In this document: in pieces, positions 4,047 through 42,412 of the stretch | Numbering within the stretch: position 1 is the stretch's first letter | Layout: every line of letters starts with the position of its first letter | Assembly (NCBI GenBank): GCA_049515535.1 | Contig: JBEKTZ010000004.1 | Location: 1-64,000, forward strand | Reading direction: 5' to 3' | Origin: Candidatus Aminicenantales bacterium | GTDB lineage: Bacteria > Acidobacteriota > Aminicenantia > Aminicenantales > UBA4085 | DNA length: 64,000 nt | Translations under genes and position numbers: made by a program | Notes under the pieces: generated by a model | Told to the model about the DNA's origin: nothing | Databases searched by the model: none | What the model saw: only the letters and a program-made list of their open reading frames with translations

Positions 4047-4775
4047 TCAGCGCAGGACAAACCGGACAGTCACGGTGAAGACGACGCCGCGGGGTCGGCC
4101 GTTGATGACCATGGGCTCGTACATCCACTTCCGGACGGCTTCGAGCGCGGCTTCGTCAAGGAGCGGGATCGACCGCAGCACACGGTCATTCACCACGCGG
4201 CCATAGATATCGGTTGTGGCCTCGATGATCACGACGCCTTCCACCCGCGCTTGGCGGGCGATCTCCGGATAGACGGGCTCGATTCGTCTCAACAGTCTGG
4301 GCTGACGGACCTCTCCGGCCACCCGGACGGGAAGCTCGGCTGGACCTCCGAGTAAGTCGAGAATCGGCCCGATGATCCCGTTAAAAGAACCGCCGGGGAT
4401 CCCTCCTTCAACGCCGCCGTCGACTCCACCGTCCACGCCGGTCCCAAATATCTGCTCTTCGGCGATCTCGCTCGGAATGTCGACAGGGGCGACGAGCTTT
4501 CCGGCTTCGAACGCGAGCCGAGCTTGGACGGGTTTGATGCGTCCGGCAAGAGCCCCGGCGTTTTTTTTGGGCGGGGGAGGAGGCGGCGCTGGATGAGGAG
4601 GGATGATTAAAAAAGCATCAGCAGCGACTTGATAGCGCGGCAGATTTCCGACATGAAGAAGCGGCAGACAAATGATCAGCATCACGAGTCCGGCATGGAT
4701 CATGAAAGACAGGGGCAAAACCCAGGCCCTTGCGCCGATCGGCCTTTGTTCGTTGATGAGTACATCTTGAAACAT
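4047..4775 (-). CDS. tonB: TonB-family energy transducer
   Basis: TM helix with SFMIH (SxxxH), Pro-rich linker, YPEIARQARVEGVV TonB_C motif; AAGGAGG RBS. Confidence 0.9.
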   Translation of the reverse strand: MFQDVLINEQRPIGARAWVLPLSFMIHAGLVMLIICLPLLHVGNLPRYQVAADAFLIIPPHPAPPPPPPKKNAGALAGRIKPVQARLAFEAGKLVAPVDIPSEIAEEQIFGTGVDGGVDGGVEGGIPGGSFNGIIGPILDLLGGPAELPVRVAGEVRQPRLLRRIEPVYPEIARQARVEGVVIIEATTDIYGRVVNDRVLRSIPLLDEAALEAVRKWMYEPMVINGRPRGVVFTVTVRFVLR

Positions 4776-8221: not shown

Positions 8222-9214
8222 CTATGATTTCAGCTTGAATGTCACTGTCAAGGTAAAGATGACGCCGCGGGGACGGCCGTTGATGATCATCGGCTCGTAG
8301 ACATACTGCCGCACGGCATCGATGGCCGCCTGGTCCAGGAGCGGAATCGATTTTAAAACCTTGTAGCCCTGGACGCGGCCGTAGATGTCGGTCATCGCCT
8401 CGATGATCACCACGCCTTCCACGCGTGCCTGGCGGGCGATGTCCGGATATATGGGGTCCACCCACTTCAATAGCTTGGGAGGTTTGATCTCGCCGATGGC
8501 CCGGACCGGGGCCTCGATCTCTCCGACCACACCGCCCAACACGCCGCCCACGACGCCGCCGAGGACCCCCCCGATCACGCCGCCTTCGACTCCGCCCTCG
8601 ACGCCGCCTTCGATCCCGACATCGGATATCTGCTCTTCGGCGATCTGGTCGGGGATCTCGACGGGGGCGACGAGCTTACCGGCCTCGAACGAGGACTGGG
8701 TTTGGACGGGCTTGATACGTTTGGCTTGGGTGCTGGCCGCTTTCTTGGCTGGCGGGGGCGGAGGCGGCGGGGGAGGCGGGGGCGGAGCGAGGAACGCGCT
8801 CGTGATCTCGATCTTCGGCAGGTTGGACGTGTTGAGGAGCGGCAGGATGACTAAAATCGAGGCGAGAATCGCGTGGGCGGCGAATGAGAATGGGAAGACC
8901 CACACCTTCGTTTTGATATTTCCCCGCGGTCTGATGAACGAGTCTTGAAACATGACGGCCTCCTTTGGCTTGACGCCGGACGATCGGCGCCGGATGCCGG
9001 ACGTGATTCGGCCCGCGAAAGAATCCCAATAGGCTTTGTCGTCAAGCTCGACGGATGGGCTTTTCGACCGGGCATCGATTTCCTGAAGGAGCGTCATCTC
9101 TTCACGGCAGAGGGCGCATTCCCGCAAATGATTCGCGACGCTCGCCTTCTGGCTTCCCTTGAGTTCTCCGTCGAGGAAGGCGCCCAAGAGAGAGAAAGCT
9201 TTTTTGTGTCTCAC
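8222..9214 (-). CDS. zf-HC2 anti-sigma domain fused to TonB
   Basis: AFLDGEL...HLRECALC (HxxxCxxC), then TM SFAAH, poly-Pro linker and YPDIARQARVEGVV. Confidence 0.88.
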   Translation of the reverse strand: MRHKKAFSLLGAFLDGELKGSQKASVANHLRECALCREEMTLLQEIDARSKSPSVELDDKAYWDSFAGRITSGIRRRSSGVKPKEAVMFQDSFIRPRGNIKTKVWVFPFSFAAHAILASILVILPLLNTSNLPKIEITSAFLAPPPPPPPPPPPPAKKAASTQAKRIKPVQTQSSFEAGKLVAPVEIPDQIAEEQISDVGIEGGVEGGVEGGVIGGVLGGVVGGVLGGVVGEIEAPVRAIGEIKPPKLLKWVDPIYPDIARQARVEGVVIIEAMTDIYGRVQGYKVLKSIPLLDQAAIDAVRQYVYEPMIINGRPRGVIFTLTVTFKLKS

Positions 9215-20835: not shown

Positions 20836-21954
20836 ATGAAAACCATCGTCCGTCTCATCCTCGCCTCCGCCGGCATCCTGGCCCTGGTGTCCTGTTCTCT
20901 CGTTTTTCACAAAAAACCGGCGCCCTTGAATCTGACTTTTCCCCTTCTTGAGGATTCCCGGCTGGAGATCGACGGCGAGATCAGCGACGGTCTGCGAACC
21001 GACGGTGCCCGAGTCTATGCCGCCACGAAAAAGGGATGGGTTTATGCCGTGGATGCCAACTCAAAGAAGATCGCTTGGAAATTCGCGGCGAAAGCGCCCG
21101 TCGTTTCGTTCCCTTCGGTCGGCTCGGGCCGAATCGTCCTGGCCGACAAGGAGAATAGACTGACCTGCCTTTCGGCGGAAGGAAAATCGCTGTGGGAAAA
21201 GAAGCTCGCCGAAGCGATAACGAGCGAGGTCGTCCAAAACGCGGATAAATTGTTTTTCACGATCGCTGACGCGAGCTTGATCGCGCTCGATGCCGCATCC
21301 GGAAACGAGGACTGGCGTTTCACCGCAGGGGAGGCCATTCAGACCGGGCCCGTGTTTTGGAATCACCAGATCCTGATCGGGACGGCCGGAGGGAAGATCC
21401 GTTTCCTCACGGCGTTCGGGCAACTGGGTTCGACGTTCGAAATCGGAGGCTCCTTTGCCGGACCGCTCTTTGTGGACGCGAACAAATTGTATTTCACGCT
21501 GGACAACGGCACGTTTATTTGCCTGGCTCTGGCCTCGAAAAGGATTCTCTGGAAGATAAGAACAGGCTCGTTGACGGCGCTTCCGGTGACCGACGACGAG
21601 CGGATTTATTTCGCGACCTCGAACAGGACCCTCTTTGGTTTGAATAAAGAAAACGGAAATCTGGATTGGTGGCGCATTCTGACGGCGCGGACATCGTTCA
21701 AGCCGGCGATCGTCGGTGAGCAGATCGCGGCCTCCCTCTCGTCTTCGACTCTGGTCGTTTACCGGAAGGAGAACGGAGAGCCGGTGGGAATTTTTAATGC
21801 GGACGACGCGCACAAATCCGAGCCGGTTTACATCGGGGGGTATCTGTGGATCGGCACTTTCAATCCCGAGACTTCCAAGGGGGCCATCGTCGTCTTGAAA
21901 AGCCAACCGCCCAAGGCGGCCGCGGTCCCCAAAAAAGAGGGCCCCAAAAAATAG
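20836..21954 (+). CDS. PQQ-like beta-propeller (BamB-like) lipoprotein
   Basis: LVSC lipobox; repeated ALDA.SG...W propeller blades. Confidence 0.82.
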   Translation: MKTIVRLILASAGILALVSCSLVFHKKPAPLNLTFPLLEDSRLEIDGEISDGLRTDGARVYAATKKGWVYAVDANSKKIAWKFAAKAPVVSFPSVGSGRIVLADKENRLTCLSAEGKSLWEKKLAEAITSEVVQNADKLFFTIADASLIALDAASGNEDWRFTAGEAIQTGPVFWNHQILIGTAGGKIRFLTAFGQLGSTFEIGGSFAGPLFVDANKLYFTLDNGTFICLALASKRILWKIRTGSLTALPVTDDERIYFATSNRTLFGLNKENGNLDWWRILTARTSFKPAIVGEQIAASLSSSTLVVYRKENGEPVGIFNADDAHKSEPVYIGGYLWIGTFNPETSKGAIVVLKSQPPKAAAVPKKEGPKK

Positions 21955-22537
21955 GGCGAAAGGAGATCGGATCATGAAGAGAGAAGAAGCATGGGAACTC
22001 GTGACGACGCATCTCGAAAACAAAAACCTCGTCAAGCATTGCCTGGCCGTGGAAGCCTGCATGAAGGCGATGGCCGCCAGGCTCGGCCAGGATCCCGAGT
22101 CCTGGGGCTTGGCGGGACTCGTCCATGATCTGGACTATGAACTGACTGAGAAGAGCCCGGAGCTCCATACCAAGGAAACCGTCAAGATCCTCAAAGGCCT
22201 GAACCTGGATCCGGTCGTCATTCATGCGGTCGAAGCTCACGCCGCGAAAGTCTCGTGCGAAAACGCCATGGACTGGGCCATCTTTTCGATCGATCCTCTC
22301 ACCGGCTTGATCATCGCCGCGACGCTGATGCATCCGGACAAGAAGCTCAAGAGCATCGACCTGGAGTTCGTCAAACGACGCTACAAGGAAAAAAGCTTCG
22401 CCCGCGGCGCACGGCGGGAAGAGATCGAACAGTGCAAAAACCTCGGCCTGGATCTCGACGAGTTTATGTCGATCTGTCTCCGCGCCATGCAGGGCATCGA
22501 CCGGGATTTAGGGCTGTAACAGAGGTTGCCATCGCCG
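21657..22537 (+). repeat. Direct repeat copy 1 (propeller 3' end plus HD gene)
   Basis: Matches 31473-32176, which lacks about 180 bp of the propeller part. Confidence 0.93.
21974..22519 (+). CDS. HD(IG)-domain phosphohydrolase
   Basis: HCLAVE..M, GLVHDLDYE, DPLTGLI, FARGARRE. Confidence 0.88.
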   Translation: MKREEAWELVTTHLENKNLVKHCLAVEACMKAMAARLGQDPESWGLAGLVHDLDYELTEKSPELHTKETVKILKGLNLDPVVIHAVEAHAAKVSCENAMDWAIFSIDPLTGLIIAATLMHPDKKLKSIDLEFVKRRYKEKSFARGARREEIEQCKNLGLDLDEFMSICLRAMQGIDRDLGL

Positions 22538-31472: not shown

Positions 31473-32176
31473 AAATCTGGATTGGTGGCGCATTCTGACG
31501 GCGCGGACATCGTTTAGGCCGGCCATCGTCGTCTTGAAAAGCCAACCGCCCAAGGCGGCCGCGGTCCCCAAAAAAGAGGGCCCCAAAAAATAGGGCGAAA
31601 GGAGATCGGATCATGAAGAGAGAAGAAGCATGGGAACTCGTGACGACGCATCTCGAAAACAAAAACCTCGTCAAGCATTGCCTGGCCGTGGAAGCCTGCA
31701 TGAAGGCGATGGCCGCCAGGCTCGGCCAGGATCCCGAGTCCTGGGGCTTGGCGGGACTCGTCCATGATCTGGACTATGAACTGACTGAGAAGAGCCCGGA
31801 GCTCCATACCAAGGAAACCGTCAAGATCCTCAAAGGCCTGAACCTGGATCCGGTCGTCATTCATGCGGTCGAAGCTCACGCCGCGAAAGTCTCGTGCGAA
31901 AACGCCATGGACTGGGCCATCTTTTCGATCGATCCTCTCACCGGCTTGATCATCGCCGCGACGCTGATGCATCCGGACAAGAAGCTCAAGAGCATCGACC
32001 TGGAGTTCGTCAAACGACGCTACAAGGAAAAAAGCTTCGCCCGCGGCGCACGGCGGGAAGAGATCGAACAGTGCAAAAACCTCGGCCTGGATCTCGACGA
32101 GTTTATGTCGATCTGTCTCCGCGCCATGCAGGGCATCGACCGGGATTTAGGGCTGTAACAGAGGTTGCCATCGCCG
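31473..32176 (+). repeat. Direct repeat copy 2 with internal deletion
   Basis: Matches 21657-22537; deletion joins GGCGATCGTCG to GGCCATCGTCG. Confidence 0.93.
31613..32158 (+). CDS. HD(IG)-domain phosphohydrolase, identical duplicate
   Basis: Translation identical to 21974-22519. Confidence 0.88.
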   Translation: MKREEAWELVTTHLENKNLVKHCLAVEACMKAMAARLGQDPESWGLAGLVHDLDYELTEKSPELHTKETVKILKGLNLDPVVIHAVEAHAAKVSCENAMDWAIFSIDPLTGLIIAATLMHPDKKLKSIDLEFVKRRYKEKSFARGARREEIEQCKNLGLDLDEFMSICLRAMQGIDRDLGL

Positions 32177-32301: not shown

Positions 32302-33477
32302 TCACTTCTTGCTGTAATCCAATCCCAGCACGACGACGTCGCCCTCTTTCAGTTCGCCGCCGGCGATCTCCGTGTAGGTGTTGCCGTTGACCCCCGTATG
32401 GACGCCCACAGGGGTCAGAGAGCCGTCGGCCTGCTGAACCCAAACGCGCGGCCCTTCTCTCTTCGGGAAAGGCTTCGCGGCGGGTTTTTTCGCTTTCTTT
32501 TTGGAAACCGCCGGCAGGGCGGGCTCGAATTTTAAGGCCGAGTTGGTGACATATAGGACGTTCTTGGCTTCCGCGGTGATGATGGTGGCGGTCGCGGTCA
32601 TGCCCGGCAGCAACTTGCCCTCGGGATTTTCGGCATCGACGAGCGTGTGATAAGTGACGACTTTCCCGGTCGAGTCCGTCTCGCCGCCGGCTCGGACCTG
32701 GAGGACCTTGCCCTGGAAAACCTGGCCGGGATAAGCTTCGACCTCGAAACGGACATTCAGTCCTTCCTTGACCCGGCCGACGTCCGCCTCGTCCACATCG
32801 CAATCCAAAAGCAGCTTGCCGATGTCGTTGGCCACCTTGAAGAGTTCGGGGGCCAGCATGCTCGACGCAAGGGTCTGGCCGACGTTGATCTCGCGGTAGA
32901 TAACAACCCCGTCCATCGGTGCGCGGATGGTGCAGTTGTTAAGGTCGATGCGGCTCTGGTCGAGCAGGGCTTGGGCTTGTTTTAGCCCGGCCTGGGCGAT
33001 GAGAAGGTCGTCTTTGGCGGCTTCGTACGTGTCGACGGCCGTCTCCTTGTCCTCGACGGAGATCTGCCCTTTATCGAAAAGGTCCACGTTCCGGTCACTT
33101 TCCTTCTTGGCAATATCGAGGGCGATCCGGGCTTTTTCGACTTCCGCCTGGGCCGATTGATAATTCGCTTCGCGCTGTTTGAGGACATCCGCGAAGGGCG
33201 CCTTGTCGATTTCGGCGAGGATGTCGCCTTTCCTGACCTTGGCGTTGAAATCCGCGTAGATCTTCGCGACCTTTCCGGAGACCTGGGCTCCCACCGGAAC
33301 CAAGGTTACGGGGCTCAGCGTGCCGCTGGTGATGATGATGGATTCAATATCCCCCCTCGCCACGGCTTCCGTCCTCAGGTTGGGTCCTTTGGTGAAGTTC
33401 CGGTGAATATAGAGCTCGAGTCCGACTACGAGCACGATGATTAAAAGGACAAGGCCGGCGATCAGTTTTTTGTTCAC
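32302..33477 (-). CDS. Efflux periplasmic adaptor (MacA-like membrane fusion protein)
   Basis: VGAQVSGKV, IRAPMDGVV, VDEADVGRV, LLPGMTA. Confidence 0.9.
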   Translation of the reverse strand: MNKKLIAGLVLLIIVLVVGLELYIHRNFTKGPNLRTEAVARGDIESIIITSGTLSPVTLVPVGAQVSGKVAKIYADFNAKVRKGDILAEIDKAPFADVLKQREANYQSAQAEVEKARIALDIAKKESDRNVDLFDKGQISVEDKETAVDTYEAAKDDLLIAQAGLKQAQALLDQSRIDLNNCTIRAPMDGVVIYREINVGQTLASSMLAPELFKVANDIGKLLLDCDVDEADVGRVKEGLNVRFEVEAYPGQVFQGKVLQVRAGGETDSTGKVVTYHTLVDAENPEGKLLPGMTATATIITAEAKNVLYVTNSALKFEPALPAVSKKKAKKPAAKPFPKREGPRVWVQQADGSLTPVGVHTGVNGNTYTEIAGGELKEGDVVVLGLDYSKK

Positions 33478-33676: not shown

Positions 33677-35647
33677 TCAAAAAACTTTGACTTTGGCTCC
33701 CACTTCGAAAAACCGGGCCCGCCATGGAAATATCGGCTCGGAATAAAAATAATCATCGAAAATATTGGTCACTTTGAGGAAGACTTCGAGCCGATCGAAT
33801 GTGTAGGACGCGACGGCGTCAAGGTTGAAGTAGGATGGGATGGCGAGGAGCGCGTTCGTGGAGGAGTCGACCCAGCTCGAATTCGAAGCGAAAAGCCCCA
33901 GGAAGCTGATGCGCAGGGCGGAAAAGGGGTTGAGCGAAACATCGAAATTGAGGTTGTGATTCGAGAGCGCGTCGAGCGGTCGGTCGTTGGTCTCGTTCTT
34001 ATGGTCGATGTAAGTGTAGTTGAGCGTCGCTTCAAGCCAGCCCAGTGATTTCTGGGCCTGGAATTCCAGGCCGTTGATATGGGCTTGGCCGATATTCCAA
34101 TTCCGTTTCGTGCCGTCCGGAAGCGTCATGGTATCGATCATGTTCTTGAACTGATAGGTAAAGACGGATCCCGACAGGAAAAGTCCTTTGTTCCAGGTGA
34201 ATCCGAACTCTCCGTTTGTTCCCGTTTCGCTCAGCAGGTCCGGGTTTCCGCCGGAGGGCGAATACATCGCGCGCATGTTGGGAAACCTGGATTTCTGCGA
34301 GAACGAGAGGTGAAGATCCAGGTTTTCCGCGGGCGTGAACTTGAGTCCCAGGAGGGGATTGAGGCGCGAAGCGCTGCCTCCGGTGAACTTATCGATGACG
34401 TCGAGGCTCAGCCCGCCGATGACCTTCCATTGGTCGGTCAGGGAAACGTGGTCCTCGACGGCCGCGGAGAAGGTCCCTTGATCATATCGGGTCCAGGGCA
34501 AGTTGACGTCGTCCTGCGTCCGGGCGATGTCCTTTTGATAATTGAGGCTGACCTTGAGGGAGTTCCAGGCGGCCCATCCGAAATCGGCCAGGACGAACGC
34601 GCCGTAAACCGAGTTGTTGAAAGTGCTCTCGAACTGACGGCTCGTCATCGCCATATCTTTGTATTGATCGAGGGTATTCCGGTAGTTCACGAAAAACGTC
34701 CGGAACCGGAGAGTCGCGTTCTCGCCCAGGGACGTAAACCCGCCGGCGTTCAGGGTATAGCGATCCCAGTTCTTGAAGTGCCAGTAGCGGGCCTTTTGGA
34801 CGCCCAGCGCCGGCGGCATGCCGTACTCCGAAGTGTAAATGCCGCCGTTGATCATGATCTCCGTGTTGCTCGATGGCGTGTAGTAAGCTTTGGCGTTGAG
34901 ATTGAACCTTTTATAGTCCGTGTTCATCCACGAGATCTTGTCTCCGGTCGCGGCGTCGGGATAGGCGAAGCCGTTCGAGTCTTGATAGGCAAGATTGCCG
35001 GCCAAAGCGAATTTATTCAATTGGAAACCGGAATCGAGATCGAAGGACCGGGTTTTCCGCTCTCCTTCGAAAAGGGAAGGCAGGAGCACGGAGCTCGCCG
35101 ACAGGGTCAGATAGAGGTCGGCGCCAGGGCGGCGGGTGATGACGTTGACGATGCCGGCCAGCGTATTCGGACCGTAGAGGACGGAGGAGGGGCCTTTGGT
35201 GATCTGGAGCGAATCGAGTCCTGCGGCCGAGACCGTCTTGAGGTCGAATGAGCCGTAATAAGGCTCATAGCTCGGCACGCCGTCAATGAGCAGGGCGATT
35301 CGCCGCGAATCCATGCCGCGCAGTTTCAGGGTGAACTCGTACTTGTTGCCGTAGGTCACGCTGACGCCCGGCGCGTAGCGGATGGCCTCGGACAGATCGA
35401 GGGGCTTGTTCTGGTCGAGTTTCGTGAAATCGATCCGGGTGACCGTGGCGACAGGCTGTTCCTTGGGAGCTTTGCCGACGACCAGGATCTCTTCGGTGAT
35501 CTTGACCGGCTTTTCTTTTTCCTGTTCTTTCTTCTTGGCCTCTTCTTGAGCGAAACCGGAAAAGGAAAGCAGGAAGATCGAAACGACGGCCGCAGCCAGA
35601 ATCTTCAAGACGAAATTATTGGATTTCAAGACTCTAGAATGATGCAT
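33677..35647 (-). CDS. TonB-dependent receptor (small-molecule type)
   Basis: Signal peptide, EEILVVG TonB box-like, LRG..LLIDGVP, KGPSSVLYG..GIVNVIT, C-terminal Phe. Confidence 0.92.
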   Translation of the reverse strand: MHHSRVLKSNNFVLKILAAAVVSIFLLSFSGFAQEEAKKKEQEKEKPVKITEEILVVGKAPKEQPVATVTRIDFTKLDQNKPLDLSEAIRYAPGVSVTYGNKYEFTLKLRGMDSRRIALLIDGVPSYEPYYGSFDLKTVSAAGLDSLQITKGPSSVLYGPNTLAGIVNVITRRPGADLYLTLSASSVLLPSLFEGERKTRSFDLDSGFQLNKFALAGNLAYQDSNGFAYPDAATGDKISWMNTDYKRFNLNAKAYYTPSSNTEIMINGGIYTSEYGMPPALGVQKARYWHFKNWDRYTLNAGGFTSLGENATLRFRTFFVNYRNTLDQYKDMAMTSRQFESTFNNSVYGAFVLADFGWAAWNSLKVSLNYQKDIARTQDDVNLPWTRYDQGTFSAAVEDHVSLTDQWKVIGGLSLDVIDKFTGGSASRLNPLLGLKFTPAENLDLHLSFSQKSRFPNMRAMYSPSGGNPDLLSETGTNGEFGFTWNKGLFLSGSVFTYQFKNMIDTMTLPDGTKRNWNIGQAHINGLEFQAQKSLGWLEATLNYTYIDHKNETNDRPLDALSNHNLNFDVSLNPFSALRISFLGLFASNSSWVDSSTNALLAIPSYFNLDAVASYTFDRLEVFLKVTNIFDDYFYSEPIFPWRARFFEVGAKVKVF

Positions 35648-35653
35648 GACGTT

Positions 35654-35760
35654 CTCCTTTTCAAGCACGGAAGGCAAAGCCGTTTCCCGCTTTGCCCTAT
35701 CGGCCAAAGGGCATGGCCGGCCGCGAAGGCTCGGCTTTAGCTCCTTTGGCTCGGAGCGGG
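35654..35760 (-). ncRNA. Moco-class riboswitch-like RNA, probably the tungsten-cofactor-type variant
   Basis: CTCCGAGC-CAAAGG.CTAA...CATG.CCTTTGGCCGATAGGGC-AAAGCGG-GAAA-CGGCTTT-GCCTTCCGTGCTTGAAAAGGAG; 5' CTCC can pair with the RBS GGAG. Confidence 0.78.
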
Positions 35761-35765
35761 TGAGG

Positions 35766-35813
35766 AATATAGCATATTTCAATTTTGACTTCAACTTTTG
35801 CCTGTGCTATAAA
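35766..35813. promoter_or_regulatory. Overlapping divergent sigma70 promoters
   Basis: Minus TTGAAG-17-TATATT and plus TTGACT-17-TATAAA, both with extended -10 TG. Confidence 0.65.
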
Positions 35814-35925
35814 ATTTCTGGCGGGACGGCTCGAGACGAGAAAGTCGCCGATGAATGGGATGCCGGCGCGATGTCCCGGCCGTGCCGCGAAGAGCGCCGC
35901 CGACGGGCGCACAGGAGAGTTCTTC

Positions 35926-36096
35926 ATGAAAGAAGCATCGATCGTCCTGAGTGTGGACGACAAAGACGTTCCCCTGAATCCGTTCGTCCGGAAGATCATG
36001 ACCAATACCATCGAGGGAATGGTTCGGTCGCTGGACAACGTCGCGAAGAATCCCCGGGAAATCCGCGTCACGATAACGAAGGAGGTCAAAGGATGA
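35926..36096 (+). CDS. Small protein resembling the C-terminal extension of MobB
   Basis: LSVDDKDVPLNPFVRKIMTNTIEGMVRSL; AGGAG RBS; coupled to the next gene. Confidence 0.6.
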   Translation: MKEASIVLSVDDKDVPLNPFVRKIMTNTIEGMVRSLDNVAKNPREIRVTITKEVKG

Positions 36097-36722
36097 AAAG
36101 CCTAAAGAACTGGCTCTGGCTCCTGGTCTTCGGCTCTTTGTGGGGGATCATGGAAGTTGTCGGCGGTGAAGCGTTTTTCAGGAACAATGTCCCTCATGCC
36201 TCGGTCTGGCTTTCGGGCTGGGCGTTTCTCCTGCTCGCGACCGCGCGCGGAATCGTCAATAAACCGGGCTCGTCCACGGTCATCGGCGCCACGGCCACGC
36301 TCTTCAAGCTGGTCTACGCGGCGCCTTATTTCTGCCATCTCCTCGGGATCTTTTACATCGGCCTCGTCTTCGATATCGGGGCCACGCTCTGGATGAAGAA
36401 CGTCAAAAAATTCTCCTGGCGCAGCTTGCTGACCGGAATCGTCACGGCCTACGGCGGCTACGCCCTGTTCGCGGTCACCATCGCCTATATCGCCAAATTC
36501 GAGCCGTGGCTGTCGGCTGGGACGCCGAATTTGCCGAAGGTCCTGAACCACATTTTCTCCGGAGGCAGCCTGGCCGCGCTGACGGCCCTCGTCCTCGTTC
36601 CCCTCGGTTTCAAAATCGGATGGGGCAGCGAATCCGCCGTCGAACGTCGATCGAAGTGGGCCATGGCCGGGGCTTTGATCGTCCTCGCCGTTCTCTGGAC
36701 GCTCGGCAAATTCATCAGCTGA
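36093..36722 (+). CDS. About 6-TM membrane protein, ECF S-component-like
   Basis: 209 aa hydrophobic; FGSLWGIME, ARGIVNKPGSSTVIG; AAGGAGG RBS. Confidence 0.6.
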   Translation: MKSLKNWLWLLVFGSLWGIMEVVGGEAFFRNNVPHASVWLSGWAFLLLATARGIVNKPGSSTVIGATATLFKLVYAAPYFCHLLGIFYIGLVFDIGATLWMKNVKKFSWRSLLTGIVTAYGGYALFAVTIAYIAKFEPWLSAGTPNLPKVLNHIFSGGSLAALTALVLVPLGFKIGWGSESAVERRSKWAMAGALIVLAVLWTLGKFIS

Positions 36723-36784
36723 AAAAAAGAGGCGACGCATCCCCGTCTTTCGAAAACGGGATGCGCGCATGAGTTTTGGCTCTC

Positions 36785-37417
36785 ATGAAGAACTTTGAAA
36801 AGGATTTTTTTCTGAAGCGCGACCTGGCCGTTCTGGCCGCGCTCAGCGAAAGCACGGTGGGCATCGCCGGCGCCGGAGGCCTGGGGTCGAATATCGCCGC
36901 GACCCTGGCCCGGGCCGGCGTCGGCAAGCTGATCATTGCGGATTATGACGTTCTGGAAGCGCCCGATCTCAATCGCCAATGCTATTTCGTCGACCAGATC
37001 GGAAAGCCGAAAGTGGAAGCTCTTCTGGAAAACCTGACCAAAATGAATCCCTTTTCGATGTACGAAATCCATAATATTAAAATCGATCGGGAGAACGTGA
37101 AGAGGATCTTCGGCCCGGCGGATCTCCTGATCGAGGCGTTCGACATGGCCGACCAGAAACAGATGCTGATCGAAGCGTGGCTGACGCACTTTCCCGAAAA
37201 ACCCGTCATCGCGGCCTCGGGGCTGGCAGGCTACGGCGGCAACAACCGGCTGCGACAGAGAAGAGTGGGACAGCTTTATATCTGCGGGGATGAATCCAGT
37301 GAATGCGATGTTTGCACGGCCCCCATGGCTCCGCGCGTCAACATCGTGGCCAACATGCAGGCGAACCTGGCGGTGGAACTCTTGGTCAAAATGAGAAGGG
37401 CGCATGTTCAAGGTTAA
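36785..37417 (+). CDS. thiF: ThiF/MoeB-family adenylyltransferase
   Basis: GIAGAGGLGS, DLNRQ, EAFD, MAPRVNIVANMQAN. Confidence 0.85.
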   Translation: MKNFEKDFFLKRDLAVLAALSESTVGIAGAGGLGSNIAATLARAGVGKLIIADYDVLEAPDLNRQCYFVDQIGKPKVEALLENLTKMNPFSMYEIHNIKIDRENVKRIFGPADLLIEAFDMADQKQMLIEAWLTHFPEKPVIAASGLAGYGGNNRLRQRRVGQLYICGDESSECDVCTAPMAPRVNIVANMQANLAVELLVKMRRAHVQG

Positions 37418-37538
37418 CGAATACTTCGACAGCGGCTGGGGCCCCGGGCTTTGCCCGGGGGTCCACTTCCGCCGCGAAGGCTCGTCCCTTGACGGCCGCG
37501 TAAAATCCCTGGCTTTCTCGACGTCCGAGGGGCCGGCT
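37404..37538 (+). pseudogene. ppnP: ppnP (YaiE-like) 5' remnant with a 63-bp palindromic insertion
   Basis: MFKVNEYFD-[insert]-GRVKSLAFSTSEGPA, then truncated at the ALDH stop. Confidence 0.7.
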
Positions 37539-39109
37539 CAAATGTCCTTTTGCGTCCATGAGCCGTCGATCAGCCTCCACATGCTTCCCGTCGGGTTTTT
37601 GTCCCGGAGTTCGGGCGGAAGGCGGTCCTGGCGAACGTTATCATAGCCATGGAGGGCGGTGAACCGGAGCATCGAGCCGGGAATGCCGACGGAGGTGAAC
37701 CCCGGATGCCCGGTCGCGGGAAAAGGGCCGCCATGAACCATGGCCGGCGTGACGGCGACGCCCGTGGGCATTTTATCGTTGAGCAGCCGCCCGGCCTTGA
37801 AGCGCAGGATCGGTTCGAGCCGGGCATAGAGCGCGTCGTCGGCGCCGGAGGCGTAAACGCTGACCGTCAGGGTTCCGTCGAGCGCTTTGGCGATATCCAG
37901 CAGTTGCTCGACATCACGGGCCGAGACGACAAGAGAGACCGGGCCGAAAGCTTCCCGCTGCATGTCTTCCGCCTTCTTGATAAAAGCATCGCCGGAGACC
38001 CGAAGCAGAGTGTTGGCGAAGCGAAAACCGGGGCCTTCGAGCGGTATCCCGCCGGTCAAGATCTCCGCGCCGGATCTTGTCATGATCTCGAGCGTTTTTT
38101 TGATTCCCTCGAGCGCGTTCGGCCCCAATAAAAATCCGGAAGGCGATGGCCTGAAATTTCGGCGGGCGGATTCGATGAACGCTTCCCCGCTTTCGTCCCG
38201 GAGAACGACGACCAACCCCGGCTTGGTGCAGAATTGCCCGGCGCTCATTTCGCACGAATGGAAAAGCTCGGACGCGATCTTTTCGGTTTTTTCTTTCGCG
38301 GCTCCCGGAAGGATGAAGATCGGGTTGACGCTCGACATTTCCAGGTAAATCGGCCGGCCTCCCAAATCGGCGGCTTGTTTCAGGCGAAGTCCCGCCGGCC
38401 GGCTTCCCGTGAACGCCGTCGCGCCGAGCCGCGGATGGGACACGAGCTTGAAGCCGTCTTCGGGCCGCAGGTGATAGATCAACTGGACCGTCGCCGGCGG
38501 CAATCCGCATTTTATGAGACCTGCGTGGGCGATCTCGGCGAAAATCCGCGTCGTGCCGGGATGGCCGGGATTGGCTTTGGCGATGACCGGGTTTCCGGCC
38601 GCGATCGCCGCGGCGAAATCTCCGCCGCCGGCCGAATTGAAGGCGAACGGAAAATTGTTCGGACCGAACACGGCGACCGGGCCGCCGAGGGCGCCGTATT
38701 TCGAGCGGATGTTGAGTCGCGTGTCGATCGTTGCCCGGCACCAGGAGCGGTCGCGGACGGCGGACGCGGCCTGATGAAGCTGATCCGTCGTCCGGGGAAG
38801 TTCGGTCAGCCGGAGCCTCGGTTCTTCGGGGAGGGCGGTTTCTCTATGGGCCGTTTCGACCAGTTCTTCGTTCCGTTCGAGGATTTTCGAAGCGAATAGA
38901 TCCAGGAAATCGGCAAGACTCTCGGGCGGCGTTTTGATCAATCCGGGGATGGAGCCGTGCGCCGCGTCGAGGGCGGCCTCGACGTCGGCGGTACTCGAAA
39001 TCGGGTAAACGTCGTCGCCGGCCTCTCCCGTGGCCGGATTAATCGCCCGGAAGGCGCCGGCGGGGTTTTGCGCCTGCCGCCATTCCCCGCCGATGAGAAG
39101 GCTTTTCAT
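37538..39109 (-). CDS. Aldehyde dehydrogenase (KGSADH-like)
   Basis: VFGPNNFPFAF..GGDFA, FTGS, EMSSVNP, GQFCTKPG, EAFGP, HGGPFPAT. Confidence 0.9.
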   Translation of the reverse strand: MKSLLIGGEWRQAQNPAGAFRAINPATGEAGDDVYPISSTADVEAALDAAHGSIPGLIKTPPESLADFLDLFASKILERNEELVETAHRETALPEEPRLRLTELPRTTDQLHQAASAVRDRSWCRATIDTRLNIRSKYGALGGPVAVFGPNNFPFAFNSAGGGDFAAAIAAGNPVIAKANPGHPGTTRIFAEIAHAGLIKCGLPPATVQLIYHLRPEDGFKLVSHPRLGATAFTGSRPAGLRLKQAADLGGRPIYLEMSSVNPIFILPGAAKEKTEKIASELFHSCEMSAGQFCTKPGLVVVLRDESGEAFIESARRNFRPSPSGFLLGPNALEGIKKTLEIMTRSGAEILTGGIPLEGPGFRFANTLLRVSGDAFIKKAEDMQREAFGPVSLVVSARDVEQLLDIAKALDGTLTVSVYASGADDALYARLEPILRFKAGRLLNDKMPTGVAVTPAMVHGGPFPATGHPGFTSVGIPGSMLRFTALHGYDNVRQDRLPPELRDKNPTGSMWRLIDGSWTQKDI

Positions 39110-39333
39110 CCGCCTGAGTAAATGGGGGAAATCGCGATTTTGTCGCCCTCTTCCAAAGGCTCGCCGGGAGCGACGGCTTTTCCGTTGCGCGTCACGATCT
39201 TCGGCCGCTGCCGCGATATCTTGATCAAATCGATGAGCGCATCGGCGGTCGTCGCGGCCGGGATCTCGATCTCTTTTTCGCTGAACCCCGCTTCGTACAT
39301 CAGCGGGCCGATCATCTTGATTTTTATTTTCAT
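39106..39333 (-). CDS. MoaD/ThiS sulfur carrier
   Basis: Beta-grasp-like, C-terminal SGG; coupled to the AOR and ALDH genes. Confidence 0.9.
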   Translation of the reverse strand: MKIKIKMIGPLMYEAGFSEKEIEIPAATTADALIDLIKISRQRPKIVTRNGKAVAPGEPLEEGDKIAISPIYSGG

Positions 39334-41168
39334 GTCAAATGAGCGTATTTTTCCGCTTCGGCCGCTTCCCGGAGGAGGTCGAGTTTCTTCAATGTTTCTT
39401 TGGTCGGAATGCCTCGGCGATCATAGCCCCGCTGGTCGTAGTAATGCTGAAGGAGGCCGTCGTATTTTTCGGCGTCGAGGACCTGGCCGGCGATGGGGCC
39501 TTCGGTATCGGCGTTGAGAGGGTCGAACCAGACGGCCGGCGGGAAATCCGCTTTGCGGGTGACATCGGGGAACTCGCGAAGGAAATGGAGCTTGATCATG
39601 GCGTAGATCCTGTCGGCTGTCGTCCACATATCCTCGAGACCCCAGTTCAATCCGGTGGCGGTATTGAAGTACTTGGGATAATTTTCCAACGGCCAGCCCA
39701 GCTCGATCCAGGGGAAGCGGCAGGCGACCATGAACTCGAACATGCCGCCGCGGATGCGCTGGAGCTCGATGACCTTGGCCGCTTTCTCCGGTCCGTAGGA
39801 TTCCCGAGTCGTGTTCTTGATCTCGAAGGTGATGATCCAGGCCTCCCGGTGGTGGGCGCCGATGGCGGCGACGCCGAAGGCCAACGCCTGTCCGGGGATG
39901 AACTTGCAGTTGTAGGCCGCCACTTCGAGACCCTTGACCTGCATGGCGTAAGCCTCGGAGCCGCGGCCGAATTCCCGGGCCATGCGCAGCGATCCCTCGG
40001 CCAGCAGGTTTCCGAGCTTGCCCTCGCGGTGGGCGGCCAGCCGAAGGAGTTCCTTGGCCCGTTCGGCGTCGCCGAACTTGAAGTCGCCGCTCGTCGCGCC
40101 GTGGTCGATGGCGTCGGCGTAGAAGCTGAGGACGCAGCCGGCTGACATCGTGTCCAATCCGTACTCGTCGCAAAGATAGTTCAAGGACCCGACTTGAGGC
40201 AGGTCGAAGATCTCCAGGTTCGCGCCGAGGAGACCGATGTTCTCGTAGTCGAGTTCGGACTCATGACCTTCCTTATCGTGGATCGTGATTCCGCAGCGCA
40301 TCGTGCAGTTGGGACAGCCGTACGTGGCGATGCGCGCGGCGTTCAAACGCTCGCCGTCGATCTTCCAGGCGTCGGGGTGATGGGTCTTCCGGAAGTTGCG
40401 GACGGGGAGACCGGCCACTTCATTGCAGAAGGAGAGGACGCCGGTCGTGCTCTGGATGGACCAGCCCGTTTGCTTGTCGATCTGTTGAACCTTTTTCAAG
40501 TCGCCGGTTCCCAGGGCTTTCATGGCCTGCGGATCGGCCTGGGGAATCGGTTTCGTGCCCTTGACGACGATGGCCTTGAGGAGTTTGGAGCCCATGACCG
40601 CCCCCATCCCCGGGCGGCCTCCGGCGCGCCCTTCCAGGCTGCGCACGACGGCATAGCGGTTGAGGTTCTCGCCGCCTTGGCCGATGTTCAGGACGCCGAC
40701 GCCCTTGCCGTACCTGCCGTAAATCCAATCGTTCGTCGCGTAGGTGCCCTGTCCCCAGACCTCGTCGGCCGGCAGGAACTCGACCTTGTCGTCTTCGATA
40801 TAAAGCATGGTCGGCCGGTCGGCCTTGCCTTCAACGATCAGGACGTCATAGCCGGCCTTCCGGAGTTGTTCGGACACGCGCGTGCCGAGGTTGCCGTCGC
40901 CGTAGAATCCCGTCAAGGGCGATTTGGCGGCGACGACCGCCTTGCCGGTGTTGGGGGCGGGGATGCCGGCGATCGGTCCCAGAGCGACGATAAACTTGTT
41001 GTCGGGGCCGAGCGGATCGACCCCCGGTTTGAGCTCGTCGTAAAGGATTTTAACGGCAAAGCCCCTGCCGCCGACCCATTTCTTGGCGAAATCTTCGTTG
41101 AAGGATTCCTTTTTATGGCTTTTTGCGGATAAATTGACCCTGAGAATATGGCCGGTCCAACCGTACAT
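39330..41168 (-). CDS. aor: Aldehyde ferredoxin oxidoreductase family (tungstopterin) enzyme
   Basis: GWTGHILRVNLS, KSPLTG, GRAGGRPGMGAVMGSKLLKA, CPNCTMRC, DEYGLDT, VKGLE. Confidence 0.93.
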   Translation of the reverse strand: MYGWTGHILRVNLSAKSHKKESFNEDFAKKWVGGRGFAVKILYDELKPGVDPLGPDNKFIVALGPIAGIPAPNTGKAVVAAKSPLTGFYGDGNLGTRVSEQLRKAGYDVLIVEGKADRPTMLYIEDDKVEFLPADEVWGQGTYATNDWIYGRYGKGVGVLNIGQGGENLNRYAVVRSLEGRAGGRPGMGAVMGSKLLKAIVVKGTKPIPQADPQAMKALGTGDLKKVQQIDKQTGWSIQSTTGVLSFCNEVAGLPVRNFRKTHHPDAWKIDGERLNAARIATYGCPNCTMRCGITIHDKEGHESELDYENIGLLGANLEIFDLPQVGSLNYLCDEYGLDTMSAGCVLSFYADAIDHGATSGDFKFGDAERAKELLRLAAHREGKLGNLLAEGSLRMAREFGRGSEAYAMQVKGLEVAAYNCKFIPGQALAFGVAAIGAHHREAWIITFEIKNTTRESYGPEKAAKVIELQRIRGGMFEFMVACRFPWIELGWPLENYPKYFNTATGLNWGLEDMWTTADRIYAMIKLHFLREFPDVTRKADFPPAVWFDPLNADTEGPIAGQVLDAEKYDGLLQHYYDQRGYDRRGIPTKETLKKLDLLREAAEAEKYAHLT

Positions 41169-41326: not shown

Positions 41327-42412
41327 ATGCCCAACATAGCTCCGGAACCTGTCTTAAGGATCATCCTGGGACTGGCGGCGGTCGCCCTCATGGTTTTTGT
41401 TCTTCCTTTTCTCGTGAAGAAAATCGAGAAAAATCTCGAAGCGTTTTTCCTGGTGATGGGAGTGCTCGCGGTCTCCATTTCCGGACTCTGGAGCCGCGGA
41501 TTGGTCGTTGAAGCGCTGAAGGCGCCGGTCATGATCGGCGCCTTCCCGATAGGCATCGTCCAGGTCGTGCTCGCGGTCGGACTTCTCATCCATTATTTCA
41601 ACGCCCCTTTTTGCGAGGCGATATTAAGGCTGGCCGCCAAACTCGGCCACCGGTGGTTCCTTTTCTCGTTGATCGCGGTGTTCGGCTTGTTGTCGAGCAT
41701 CATCTCCGTCATCCTGACCGCCTGTCTCTTGGCGGAGATCGCGGCGGCTCTTCCCCTGTCGAAAGACCACAAGATCAAACTGACGGTCGTCACCTGTTTC
41801 GCCGTGGGGCTCGGCGCCTGCCTGACGCCGCTCGGTGAGCCCTTATCGACGATTTTGGTTTCGAAGCTGGCCGGACCTCCTTTCCACGCCGGTTTCTTTT
41901 TTCCCCTGCGTTTTTTTGGCTTCTATATAATCCCCGGAGTCATCGCGATCGCCCTATTCGGAGCCCTTTGGCTCGGCCCGAAAATAACTCTTAAAAAAGA
42001 AGGGCACATCGTGGAATACGAGGAAACCCTATGGACGATCGTCGTCCGGGCTCTCAAAGTCTATGTTTTTATCGGGGCCTTGGTTTTGCTCGGCGAGGGT
42101 TTCCGGCCGCTCGTCGTCTGGTATTTCGCGAAAATCGCCCCGGGCGTCCTCTATTGGTGCAACATGGTCTCGGCCGTCCTGGACAACGCCACTCTCACTG
42201 CCATTGAAATCGGCCCCGCCCTGAATCTCCCCCAGATCATCGGTATCATCATGGGTTTATCGATTGCCGGAGGGATGCTCATTCCCGGGAATATCCCGAA
42301 TATCGTGGCCGCGGGCCGGCTGAAGATAAGCATGAAAGAGTGGGCCGTCGTCGGCATTCCCGTCGGCTTGGCGATCATGGCCGTCTTTTTCGTCATTCTT
42401 TATATTCTTTGA
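41327..42412 (+). CDS. DUF1646-like membrane protein
   Basis: EKNLEAFF, LTPLGEPLST, LDNATL, GGMLIPGNIPNI. Confidence 0.8.
   Translation: MPNIAPEPVLRIILGLAAVALMVFVLPFLVKKIEKNLEAFFLVMGVLAVSISGLWSRGLVVEALKAPVMIGAFPIGIVQVVLAVGLLIHYFNAPFCEAILRLAAKLGHRWFLFSLIAVFGLLSSIISVILTACLLAEIAAALPLSKDHKIKLTVVTCFAVGLGACLTPLGEPLSTILVSKLAGPPFHAGFFFPLRFFGFYIIPGVIAIALFGALWLGPKITLKKEGHIVEYEETLWTIVVRALKVYVFIGALVLLGEGFRPLVVWYFAKIAPGVLYWCNMVSAVLDNATLTAIEIGPALNLPQIIGIIMGLSIAGGMLIPGNIPNIVAAGRLKISMKEWAVVGIPVGLAIMAVFFVILYIL

Follow-up and report, generated by a model that had tools for sequence, protein, structure and literature searches.

The closest described counterpart of the locus reported here is the salvage of cobalamin (vitamin B12), in which a cofactor-sensing riboswitch represses a TonB-dependent outer-membrane receptor, and the inner membrane is crossed by way of BtuFCD, of the S component CbrT or of the solitary BtuM. 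The locus lies in a stretch of 64,000 nucleotides (the window) from the genome of a Candidatus Aminicenantales bacterium, an uncultured inhabitant of sediment (GCA_049515535.1, contig JBEKTZ010000004.1, positions 1–64,000; C4:1-64000 in our contig numbering). In it a gene for a TonB-dependent receptor stands behind a riboswitch of the molybdenum/tungsten cofactor (Moco/Tuco) class and is divergent from the genes for a 56-residue protein, p56, and a 210-residue membrane protein, mem210. Genes for a ThiF-type adenylyltransferase, a MoaD-like sulfur carrier and an aldehyde:ferredoxin oxidoreductase (AOR) are close by. As in B12 salvage, the candidate inner-membrane importer is either a set of Peripla_BP_2 binding protein, FecCD permease and ATPase or a protein with an S-component fold, and among solved structures BtuB is the one nearest to the receptor. 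The differences are that the RNA is RF01055 and not a cobalamin riboswitch, that the receptor scores 121 bits where BtuB requires 599.7, that mem210 is in no named S-component family, and that the substrate we infer is a Mo/W pterin cofactor.

The classical Moco/Tuco regulon consists of moaABCDE, modABC, tupABC or wtpABC, and Mo/W enzymes. The RNA in the window shares its aptamer class, and its ribosome site is in the 3' strand of helix P1, the position reported for E. coli moaA (Regulski et al. 2008, PMC2408646). It differs in what is controlled – a TonB-dependent receptor here, a BtuFCD-type importer in sister lineages – and in that no synthesis genes that the RNA could regulate were found in the host. 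In Regulski et al. 2008 (PMC2408646) the word "TonB" has 0 occurrences, and the consulted sections of Sun et al. 2013 (PMC3766115) give cofactor synthesis and Mo/W transporters as the targets of Moco riboswitches, with Moco uptake not among their coenzyme-uptake categories. By its description, another similar case is that of Pelobacter carbinolicus, an anaerobe with a TonB-dependent channel next to a molybdopterin-responsive riboswitch and with several riboswitch-controlled AOR genes. In the consulted part of that paper, the channel is read as a metal transporter in one sentence, with no inner-membrane partner and no link to missing synthesis genes (Aklujkar et al. 2012, PMC3543383).

Uptake of the finished cofactor from other organisms is known from nematodes. 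By the abstracts of that literature, Caenorhabditis elegans takes up dietary Moco and Haemonchus contortus has no Moco synthesis; these are animals, and no riboswitch, TonB receptor or energy-coupling factor (ECF) part is described for them. To our knowledge, textbooks hold that every user of a Mo/W cofactor must make its own, given how labile the cofactor is; the sole exception found in the open-access literature is dietary uptake by nematodes. A paper on the type 11 secretion system (T11SS) speculates, in the part consulted, on molybdopterin uptake. No described bacterial Moco/Tuco importer was found in the open-access literature and bioRxiv. The evidence presented below suggests that the locus is not BtuB, not ModABC and not a member of a named S-component family, and that it probably represents riboswitch-gated cofactor salvage with a presumably new substrate and a new S-component family.

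The best reading of the locus, and one that we regard as somewhat better than an even call on comparative grounds, is salvage of a preformed Mo/W pterin cofactor (Moco or Tuco, most likely metal-loaded molybdopterin). The locus would provide the outer-membrane part, and probably also the inner-membrane part, of the salvage route. An original prediction, made from the letters of the window, took the receptor and the membrane protein for importers that supply AOR with a pterin cofactor, a precursor or a metal chelate, and the comparative data support it. Four lines of evidence are considered in turn: the riboswitch, the missing synthesis genes, the presence patterns of the two importers, and the fold of mem210.

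The riboswitch aptamer was found at 35638–35768 on the minus strand, directly upstream of the receptor gene. The original prediction had placed a Moco-class RNA here, and an Rfam search bore this out: RF01055 (Moco RNA motif) was matched with 69.9 bits (E 8.4e-15; the gathering score is 36) along the entire model (1–135) and without truncation. It is the sole Moco RNA match in the 3.45-Mb genome. Besides RF01055, the Rfam matches in the window are limited to one tRNA, so that the cobalamin riboswitch that would mark a BtuB gene is not among them. In the alignment to RF01055, the columns of the P3 hairpin are deleted. The 3' strand of P1 holds AAAGGAG, which includes the Shine-Dalgarno sequence GGAG, and the ATG of the receptor (35650–35648) comes after it, at the 3' end of the aptamer match.

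These features are shared by the receptor leaders of related genomes. P3 is missing in 19/19 aligned leaders, and AAAGGAG is kept in all 19 and followed by ATG in 18. The sequences GGAAAC (the GAAA tetraloop of P4) and CTAA..G (the CUAA-type receptor bulge of P2) are invariant in the 19 leaders; both the tetraloop and the bulge are described as features of Moco RNAs (Regulski et al. 2008, PMC2408646). According to the same paper, as far as consulted, P3 is missing in 58 of 176 Moco RNAs, and its absence tracks tungsten-cofactor metabolism. The window RNA has both marks of this P3-lacking, proposed Tuco-sensing subclass, as P3 is deleted and three genes of the AOR family are present in the genome. 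For E. coli moaA, the element is reported there to be an OFF switch that requires Moco synthesis. A ribosome site embedded in P1 fits an OFF switch, and by analogy with E. coli moaA the RNA in the window may bind the cofactor and repress the receptor.

A sigma-70-like promoter for the receptor mRNA was found by consensus scan at 35766–35794 on the minus strand, with a -35 box TTGAAG (35794–35789), a spacing of 17 nt and a -10 region TG-TATATT ending at 35766; it is a consensus match and not proof. The 19 aligned leaders have in common a TATA-like box (consensus GCTATAnT) at their 5' edge. The receptor transcript would begin a few bases ahead of P1. The candidate promoter of the divergent pair, at 35785–35813 on the plus strand, was read directly from the sequence: TTGACT at 35785–35790, a 17-nt spacer and TATAAA at 35808–35813, again a match to the consensus only. 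The consensus scan did not list it because the last base of its -10 box is A. The -35 boxes of the two promoters overlap, as had been predicted for this divergent arrangement.

The pairing of riboswitch and receptor was followed in two sets of genomes. The first, the close-relative sample, consists of 41 related genomes (G000 and so on in our numbering), in which receptor orthologues were sought at E 1e-30 or better. The second is a public set with one genome per species, in which 142 relatives were found; the best 80 of these loci are used in all counts out of 80, and a neighbour is counted when its gene is within 6 kb of the receptor. By record title the best 80 are all from metagenome-assembled genomes (MAGs) of Aminicenantes/Acidobacteriota type, some with generic labels. 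In 18 of the 19 loci that were fetched, RF01055 immediately precedes the receptor, the exception being G001; a comparison of receptor and RNA coordinates added 11 further genomes. With the source genome counted, the riboswitch is thus in front of the receptor in 30 of the 34 genomes whose orthologue has at least 49% identity. The misses are G001, G030, G031 and G032, some of which may be false, as the genome-wide Moco RNA scan of the relatives used stricter filters. With a covariance model built from the 19 leaders, the RNA was found just upstream and on the same strand in 73/80 public loci. Recurring in 30/34 relatives and 73/80 public loci, the pairing is more than chance, and a lack of conserved synteny, which would have spoken against the original prediction, was not observed.

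The receptor itself (33677–35650, minus strand, 657 residues) has the two domains expected of a TonB-dependent receptor, as predicted: a plug (PF07715, 71 bits, residues 67–167) and a barrel (PF00593, 130 bits, residues 226–630). It is BtuB-like in size and plug sequence. TonB-B12 tops its list of NCBIfam matches, and the nearest solved chain is E. coli BtuB (E 1.7e-17 across the plug). The scores are below the BtuB equivalog cut-offs, at 121.4 against 599.7 bits for TIGR01779 and 90.1 against 836 for PRK10641, and by these the receptor is no BtuB equivalog. Clustering with BtuB under other regulation had been named as a sign against a Mo/W role; the nearest relatives are indeed of BtuB type, but control is by a Moco RNA and not by a cobalamin RNA. 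The N-terminus has a hydrophobic stretch ending in ...GFAQEE, which may be a signal peptide, and ITEEILVVG, invariant in 14 orthologues, is a possible TonB box. Two TonB_C proteins are encoded in the window (4047–4775 and 8222–9214). Orthologues of the receptor were found in 36/41 relatives, two of which (in G028 and G036) are merely 43% identical. Two orthologues elsewhere appear split in two (G095:C3:984112-985966 and G148:C1:265234-266455, the latter with an in-frame TGA); they are possibly pseudogenes or frameshifts, and G095 has MoaC.

The second line of evidence is the lack of detectable cofactor synthesis. The source genome is 3.45 Mb in 32 contigs, 94% complete with 2.3% contamination, and homologues of its window proteins bear source names such as Candidatus Aminicenantes. 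Pfam searches of this genome gave 0 matches for MoaC (PF01967), MoaE (PF02391), the MoaA C-terminal domain (PF06463) and MoeA_N (PF03453), and the same searches were positive in 11/14 control reference genomes. At 94% completeness the moa genes are to be called "not found" and not proven absent. MobB had no match in the source genome either, and its only match to MoCF_biosynth (PF00994) is CinA. ModA, TupA and WtpA were not found there: all matches to PBP_like_2 (three) and SBP_bac_11 are PstS proteins that adjoin PstCAB, the sole SBP_bac_11 match being among the three PBP_like_2 matches. No binding protein of either family is encoded in the window. MoaE was found in 0/5 genomes tested, four of them single-contig.

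Users of the cofactor are kept. The source genome has three AOR-family genes, five matches to PF00384 (one of them a DmsA/YnfE-type reductase, at 915 bits) and, for maturation, a MobA domain and a factor of XdhC type; late steps and cofactor-dependent enzymes have thus been kept while the synthesis genes were not found. Because MoeA, MogA and a Mo/W oxyanion importer were not found and MobA is kept, the imported species would most likely be metal-loaded. Among the relatives, MoaC and MoeA_N are present in an identical 11/41, usually in one cluster behind a Moco RNA of its own, and the 30 without them include four single-contig genomes of 3.3–4.3 Mb. AOR was found in 40/41 relatives, and PF00384 likewise in 40/41.

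An artefact would produce the same observation in a single genome. If the moa cluster were unassembled or unbinned, or if a non-homologous pathway took its place, the receptor would be one more Moco-regulated gene. An assembly of 32 contigs at 94% completeness leaves room for this, as clustered moa genes could vanish in one gap. That MoaC and MoeA are jointly missing in 30/41 relatives, the four single-contig genomes included, makes it highly improbable, and so does the class sample (201 Aminicenantia genomes, each at least 85% complete), in which MoaC was not found in 77 and found in 124. The absences are distributed by lineage and coincide with a gain of mem210 or of an ATP-binding cassette (ABC) importer described below, so that random assembly loss is an unlikely source of the pattern.

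The third line of evidence for cofactor salvage is in the presence patterns. In a test proposed beforehand, the receptor orthologue was found in 29/30 relatives without moa genes and in 5/11 with them, the co-occurrence that the original prediction called for. The membrane protein mem210, searched with profile A1, is present in 18/30 relatives without moa genes; in the 11 with moa genes there was one weak match, at 26 bits. The class sample gave the same direction. The receptor orthologue (at least 49% identity) is in 48/77 genomes in which MoaC was not found and in 22/124 in which it was found. For mem210 the counts are 46/77 and 2/124, and the predicted link between the gene pair and missing moa genes is thereby upheld for mem210. 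The class genomes are related and are not independent events; Fisher values would overstate independence, so counts are given here.

A second type of importer completes the pattern. In relatives without moa genes, a second Moco RNA, with a P3-like insert, is in front of a Peripla_BP_2 binding protein, a FecCD permease and an ABC ATPase of the BtuFCD/Fhu type. Orthologues of the binding protein (at least 39% identity) are in 15/41 relatives, with a Moco RNA directly upstream in 13 of the 15. In the class sample, the binding protein is found in 11/77 MoaC-negative and 2/124 MoaC-positive genomes, and mem210 or the binding protein in 56/77 and 4/124. All 48 MoaC-negative genomes with a receptor also have mem210 or the ABC importer (48/48), as do 2/22 of the MoaC-positive genomes with a receptor. 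Within one family, f4, MoaC is found in 46/49 genomes; the only genome with mem210 (G105) is among the three without MoaC, and so is G126, one of the two with the ABC importer. One relative with mem210, G007, has only a fragment of the ABC importer behind its Moco RNA (L038, C31:9200-18900; residues 29–149 of the binding protein and a partial ATPase), an apparent decay that fits the view of mem210 and the ABC importer as alternatives. The loci with the second riboswitch are L036-L051 in our numbering (for example L051:1528-3763 and L041:1497-4502), and several of them continue with a membrane protein of the VTT/DedA family. The Peripla_BP_2, FecCD and ATPase proteins of the source genome itself were considered as an orthologous set and rejected, as they have 31% identity to the riboswitch-controlled one and resemble ferrichrome and B12 systems.

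The fold of mem210 is the fourth line of evidence. The gene (36093–36722, plus strand) matches no Pfam or NCBIfam family, and the same is true of four distant homologues; on these profile searches mem210 is outside every named S-component family. Its own family is a small one, of 163 representative clusters in a set of 1.8 billion proteins. An AlphaFold model (pLDDT 94) has seven helices by DSSP, compared with the about six transmembrane helices of the original prediction. In a VIA-align search of 48,161 chains, which is independent of Foldseek, ranks 1–16 are all ECF S components, with Z from 12.6 to 6.6. The top match is YkoE (Z 12.6, root-mean-square deviation 4.4, 175 residues aligned), and RibU, BioY, ThiT, PanT and FolT are found down to Z 10.3, ahead of the metal transporter 4m5c (9.1), BtuM (8.0), CbiM (7.8) and CbrT (6.6). 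Among helical bundles, a Z below about 13 can reflect a common arrangement; the call is therefore based on the uniform family of the top matches and not on Z alone. Foldseek by itself gave no match at E 0.001 or better (top 5edl, E 0.011). It took the wider VIA search to place mem210. By its model, mem210 has the ECF S-component fold (six helices, about 160–210 residues) and is a candidate for the inner-membrane binding and translocation subunit.

As far as we know, S components and BtuFCD-type transporters are known for organic cofactors and chelates, and not for free oxyanions. The question of whether this receptor and these importers carry a cofactor or a metal is nevertheless the main one to be weighed. 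On the metal account, the receptor and mem210 or the BtuFCD-type importer would carry tungstate, molybdate, a thio-oxyanion or a metallophore complex, and the riboswitch would report cofactor sufficiency and govern the supply of metal. Moco RNAs classically control Mo/W transporters, by the consulted parts of Regulski 2008 (PMC2408646) and Sun et al. 2013 (PMC3766115), and the channels near molybdopterin riboswitches in P. carbinolicus were taken as metal transporters in the portion seen of that paper (PMC3543383). ECF and type II ABC importers also carry metals or chelates, and 4m5c and CbiM are among the matches of mem210. The receptor orthologue is present in the 22/124 cofactor-making genomes mentioned above, as are 7/8 of its riboswitch-bearing distant homologues, and a TOBE-domain (molbindin-type) gene adjoins one riboswitch-receptor operon (L162). 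Metal would be useless without MoeA, MogA and molybdopterin synthesis, none of which was found in the source genome, and MoaC and MoeA were likewise not found in 30/41 relatives, among them the four single-contig genomes. Metal uptake does not predict the distribution of mem210 and the ABC importer (56/77 against 4/124), and the best structural matches of mem210 are vitamin S components, which rank ahead of 4m5c and CbiM. We consider this account unlikely, at roughly a one-in-five chance.

The distant receptors cited in this comparison have 36–43% identity to the window receptor. Eighteen were fetched, with RF01055 directly upstream in eight and not in ten; in one of the ten loci without the RNA (L148) the contig leaves only about 110 bases ahead of the gene, not enough for the RNA to fit. 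All eight distant operons with the riboswitch (36–40% identity), which belong to other lineages of the Aminicenantia, continue with a conserved protein of 326–351 residues that has an N-terminal hydrophobic leader (L162:7700-8713, L163:6959-7939, L164:9400-10413, L165:9059-10075, L166:7756-8802, L167:9063-10118, L168:165-1178 and L169:9153-10166). These proteins match no Pfam family, and a profile built from them had 0 matches among Protein Data Bank (PDB) sequences. The ESM Atlas puts the protein near clusters of the molybdopterin-binding domain PF00174 (22/30 matches, score 0.93). It is a possible counter-lead to metal uptake in moa-positive genomes, and is offered as a lead only. In one of these operons, from the moaC-positive genome G042, a 95-residue TOBE-domain (molbindin-type) protein (L162:5069-5356) and a membrane protein of the Mem_trans family are encoded just upstream of the riboswitch and receptor.

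Several observations weigh against cofactor salvage. Neither inner-membrane importer was found in 3/30 relatives without moa genes (G001, 60% complete; G022, 95%; G034, 83%) or in 21/77 MoaC-negative genomes of the class sample. The receptor orthologue is found in 22/124 MoaC-positive class genomes, only 2/22 of which have mem210 or the ABC importer, and 7/8 of the distant receptors with a riboswitch are in MoaC-positive genomes. Cells with MoaC could use the receptor for Mo/W species that feed a ModABC-type system of the moa cluster. EcfT (PF02361) was found in only three of four mem210-bearing genomes tested (G000, G013 and G025, but not G039), was not found in G026 either, a genome with no mem210, and never adjoins mem210. 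The moa genes are clustered, and a MAG could lose all of them with one contig that failed to assemble. One relative in which MoaC and MoeA were not found, G015, has a P3-less Moco RNA in front of a 519-residue open reading frame (ORF) with two SBP_bac_11 (ModA-like) stretches and no adjoining permease or ATPase (C184, L043:3775-5443), which may point to metal uptake in a cell that has no MoeA, or to a bin that is incomplete. Moco is chemically labile, and its extracellular availability in sediments is conjectural. Finally, the support is comparative throughout.

The partner of mem210 in the divergent pair, p56, is encoded at 35926–36096 on the plus strand, and the two ORFs overlap by ATGA, in agreement with the coupling that had been predicted. 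It is a 56-residue cytoplasmic protein that matches positions 180–228 of the 231 in NCBIfam PRK14494, a MobB/FeS-domain protein, with E 3.3e-11; the match is at domain level only, with 43 bits against a cut-off of 323. Fusions of MobB and p56, of 222 residues, are found in G027 and G035, and the gene order in G013 is MobB, p56, mem210, ThiF. By this comparison p56 is a free-standing copy of the C-terminal domain that is fused to MobB in relatives. MobB is near the receptor in 44/80 public loci, p56 in 41/80 and mem210 in 19/80; a search by tblastn found no MobB remnant between the riboswitch and p56. The p56 model is a beta-hairpin and a helix (pLDDT 90), with no structural match above Z 2.6 among 48,161 chains and no meaningful PDB sequence match. 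A predicted complex of mem210 and p56 (alignments A1 and A4) scored 0.00 against a mark of 0.32, which is evidence neither way. Even where it is far from the receptor, mem210 is within a few kb of an AOR gene in G009, G030, G031 and G039. A divergent paralogue of mem210, with 23% identity, is directly upstream of AOR and MoaD in G013 (L022:3008-3628) and G017 (C336:4180-4746), both of one genus.

The genes downstream and beyond them are as predicted: thiF, moaD and AOR are all nearby. The ThiF/MoeB-type adenylyltransferase (36776–37417, plus strand; PF00899, 117 bits; NCBIfam PRK08644, 243 bits) is the probable E1 for the MoaD-like carrier, as judged from its family matches. On the opposite strand is an operon of AOR (39330–41168; AFOR_N 241 bits, AFOR_C 322 bits), which belongs to the tungstopterin enzyme family and is the presumed consumer of the cofactor, followed by the MoaD/ThiS-like sulfur carrier (39106–39333; PF02597, 32.9 bits; C-terminus ...IYSGG) and, as the last gene, an aldehyde dehydrogenase (37538–39109; PF00171, 152 bits). 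In the 80 public loci, ThiF is near the receptor in 29, AOR in 27, the aldehyde dehydrogenase in 21 and MoaD in 20. This operon (window 37538–41168), in which the MoaD-like carrier separates an AOR of tungsten type from an aldehyde dehydrogenase of NAD(P) type, has the same arrangement in relatives.

The sulfur-carrier genes raise another account, in which the imported compound is a metal-free pterin – cyclic pyranopterin monophosphate (cPMP), molybdopterin or an oxidised breakdown product – and ThiF and the MoaD-like carrier rebuild the dithiolene sulfurs. The presence of ThiF and a carrier ending in GG in the cluster, and their frequency near the receptor (29/80 and 20/80), would be explained by it, and cPMP is the most stable intermediate of the pathway. 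It requires MoaE, MoeA/MogA and a supply of Mo or W, and MoaE was found in 0/5 genomes tested, MoeA in 0/30 relatives without MoaC, and ModA, TupA and WtpA were not seen in the source genome. ThiF-MoaD-AOR clusters are also found in G027 and G035, two relatives that keep the moa genes, so that these clusters need not belong to salvage. Import of a metal-free precursor is, in our estimate, decidedly improbable.

Three further genes of the window were considered as parts of the system and rejected. The HlyD-family gene directly downstream of the receptor (32302–33477) is paired with it in the source genome only, and in 0/80 public loci. The DUF1646 membrane protein beside AOR (41327–42412), a possible oxyanion carrier, is conserved in 0/80 loci. 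The HD-domain gene convergent with the receptor has conserved synteny with BamB-like and MgsA genes and looks like housekeeping. The window also contains an exact 656-bp direct repeat (21882–22537 and 31521–32176) with two identical HD-domain genes for products of 181 residues (21974–22519 and 31613–32158). The repeats flank about 9 kb with genes for an outer-membrane barrel protein with a CarboxypepD_reg domain and for two TPR proteins, one of sulfatase-TPR and one of GWxTD-TPR type. Relatives have MgsA, BamB-like, HD and receptor genes in this order and no insert of about 9 kb, and the segment is therefore either a recent insertion or duplication or an assembly artefact. Elsewhere, in G006, a P3-containing Moco RNA (75 bits) is in front of genes for an aldehyde dehydrogenase (325 bits to PF00171) and a transporter of MFS/POT type (C36, L039:4836-8191), an unusual pair of targets.

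From the RNA, the genes, the folds, their conservation and the presence patterns, we infer a substrate, a role for each protein and an outside source of cofactor that would fit together as follows. At low cofactor the aptamer would be unfolded and the receptor translated. The receptor, energised by TonB, would bring the cofactor, or a stable compound closely derived from it, through the outer membrane into the periplasm. From there mem210 would carry it into the cytoplasm, on its own (as BtuM does) or coupled to a shared EcfAA'T module; in sister lineages, the riboswitch-controlled BtuFCD-type ABC importer would act in its place. In the cytoplasm, p56 and MobB-type proteins may receive or chaperone the cofactor, and MobA, the XdhC-like factor, ThiF and MoaD may tailor it and insert it into AOR and other Mo/W enzymes. 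When cofactor is sufficient, the aptamer would fold, P1 would hide the GGAG ribosome site, and less receptor would be made.

A wider proposal follows for the class, to which we give slightly less than an even chance: large parts of the Aminicenantia may be auxotrophs for the Mo/W pterin cofactor, fed by members of their community by way of riboswitch-gated uptake – the receptor with a new S-component family or a BtuFCD-type importer, and then MobB-type chaperones. The range of targets of Moco riboswitches is widened by this locus, and an unnamed S-component-like family is given a testable function. If the salvage reading is true, Moco and Tuco would be exchanged between the microbes of anoxic sediments as a "vitamin", in the manner of B12, and this would be the first bacterial transporter for them. 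It would also provide candidate proteins that bind or stabilise the free cofactor, of relevance to cofactor biochemistry and to human Moco deficiency, and would suggest cofactor-rich extract as a supplement for cultivation. For the organisms themselves, it would explain the presence of AOR and dimethyl sulfoxide (DMSO)-reductase-type enzymes in abundant uncultured anaerobes that have no synthesis genes.

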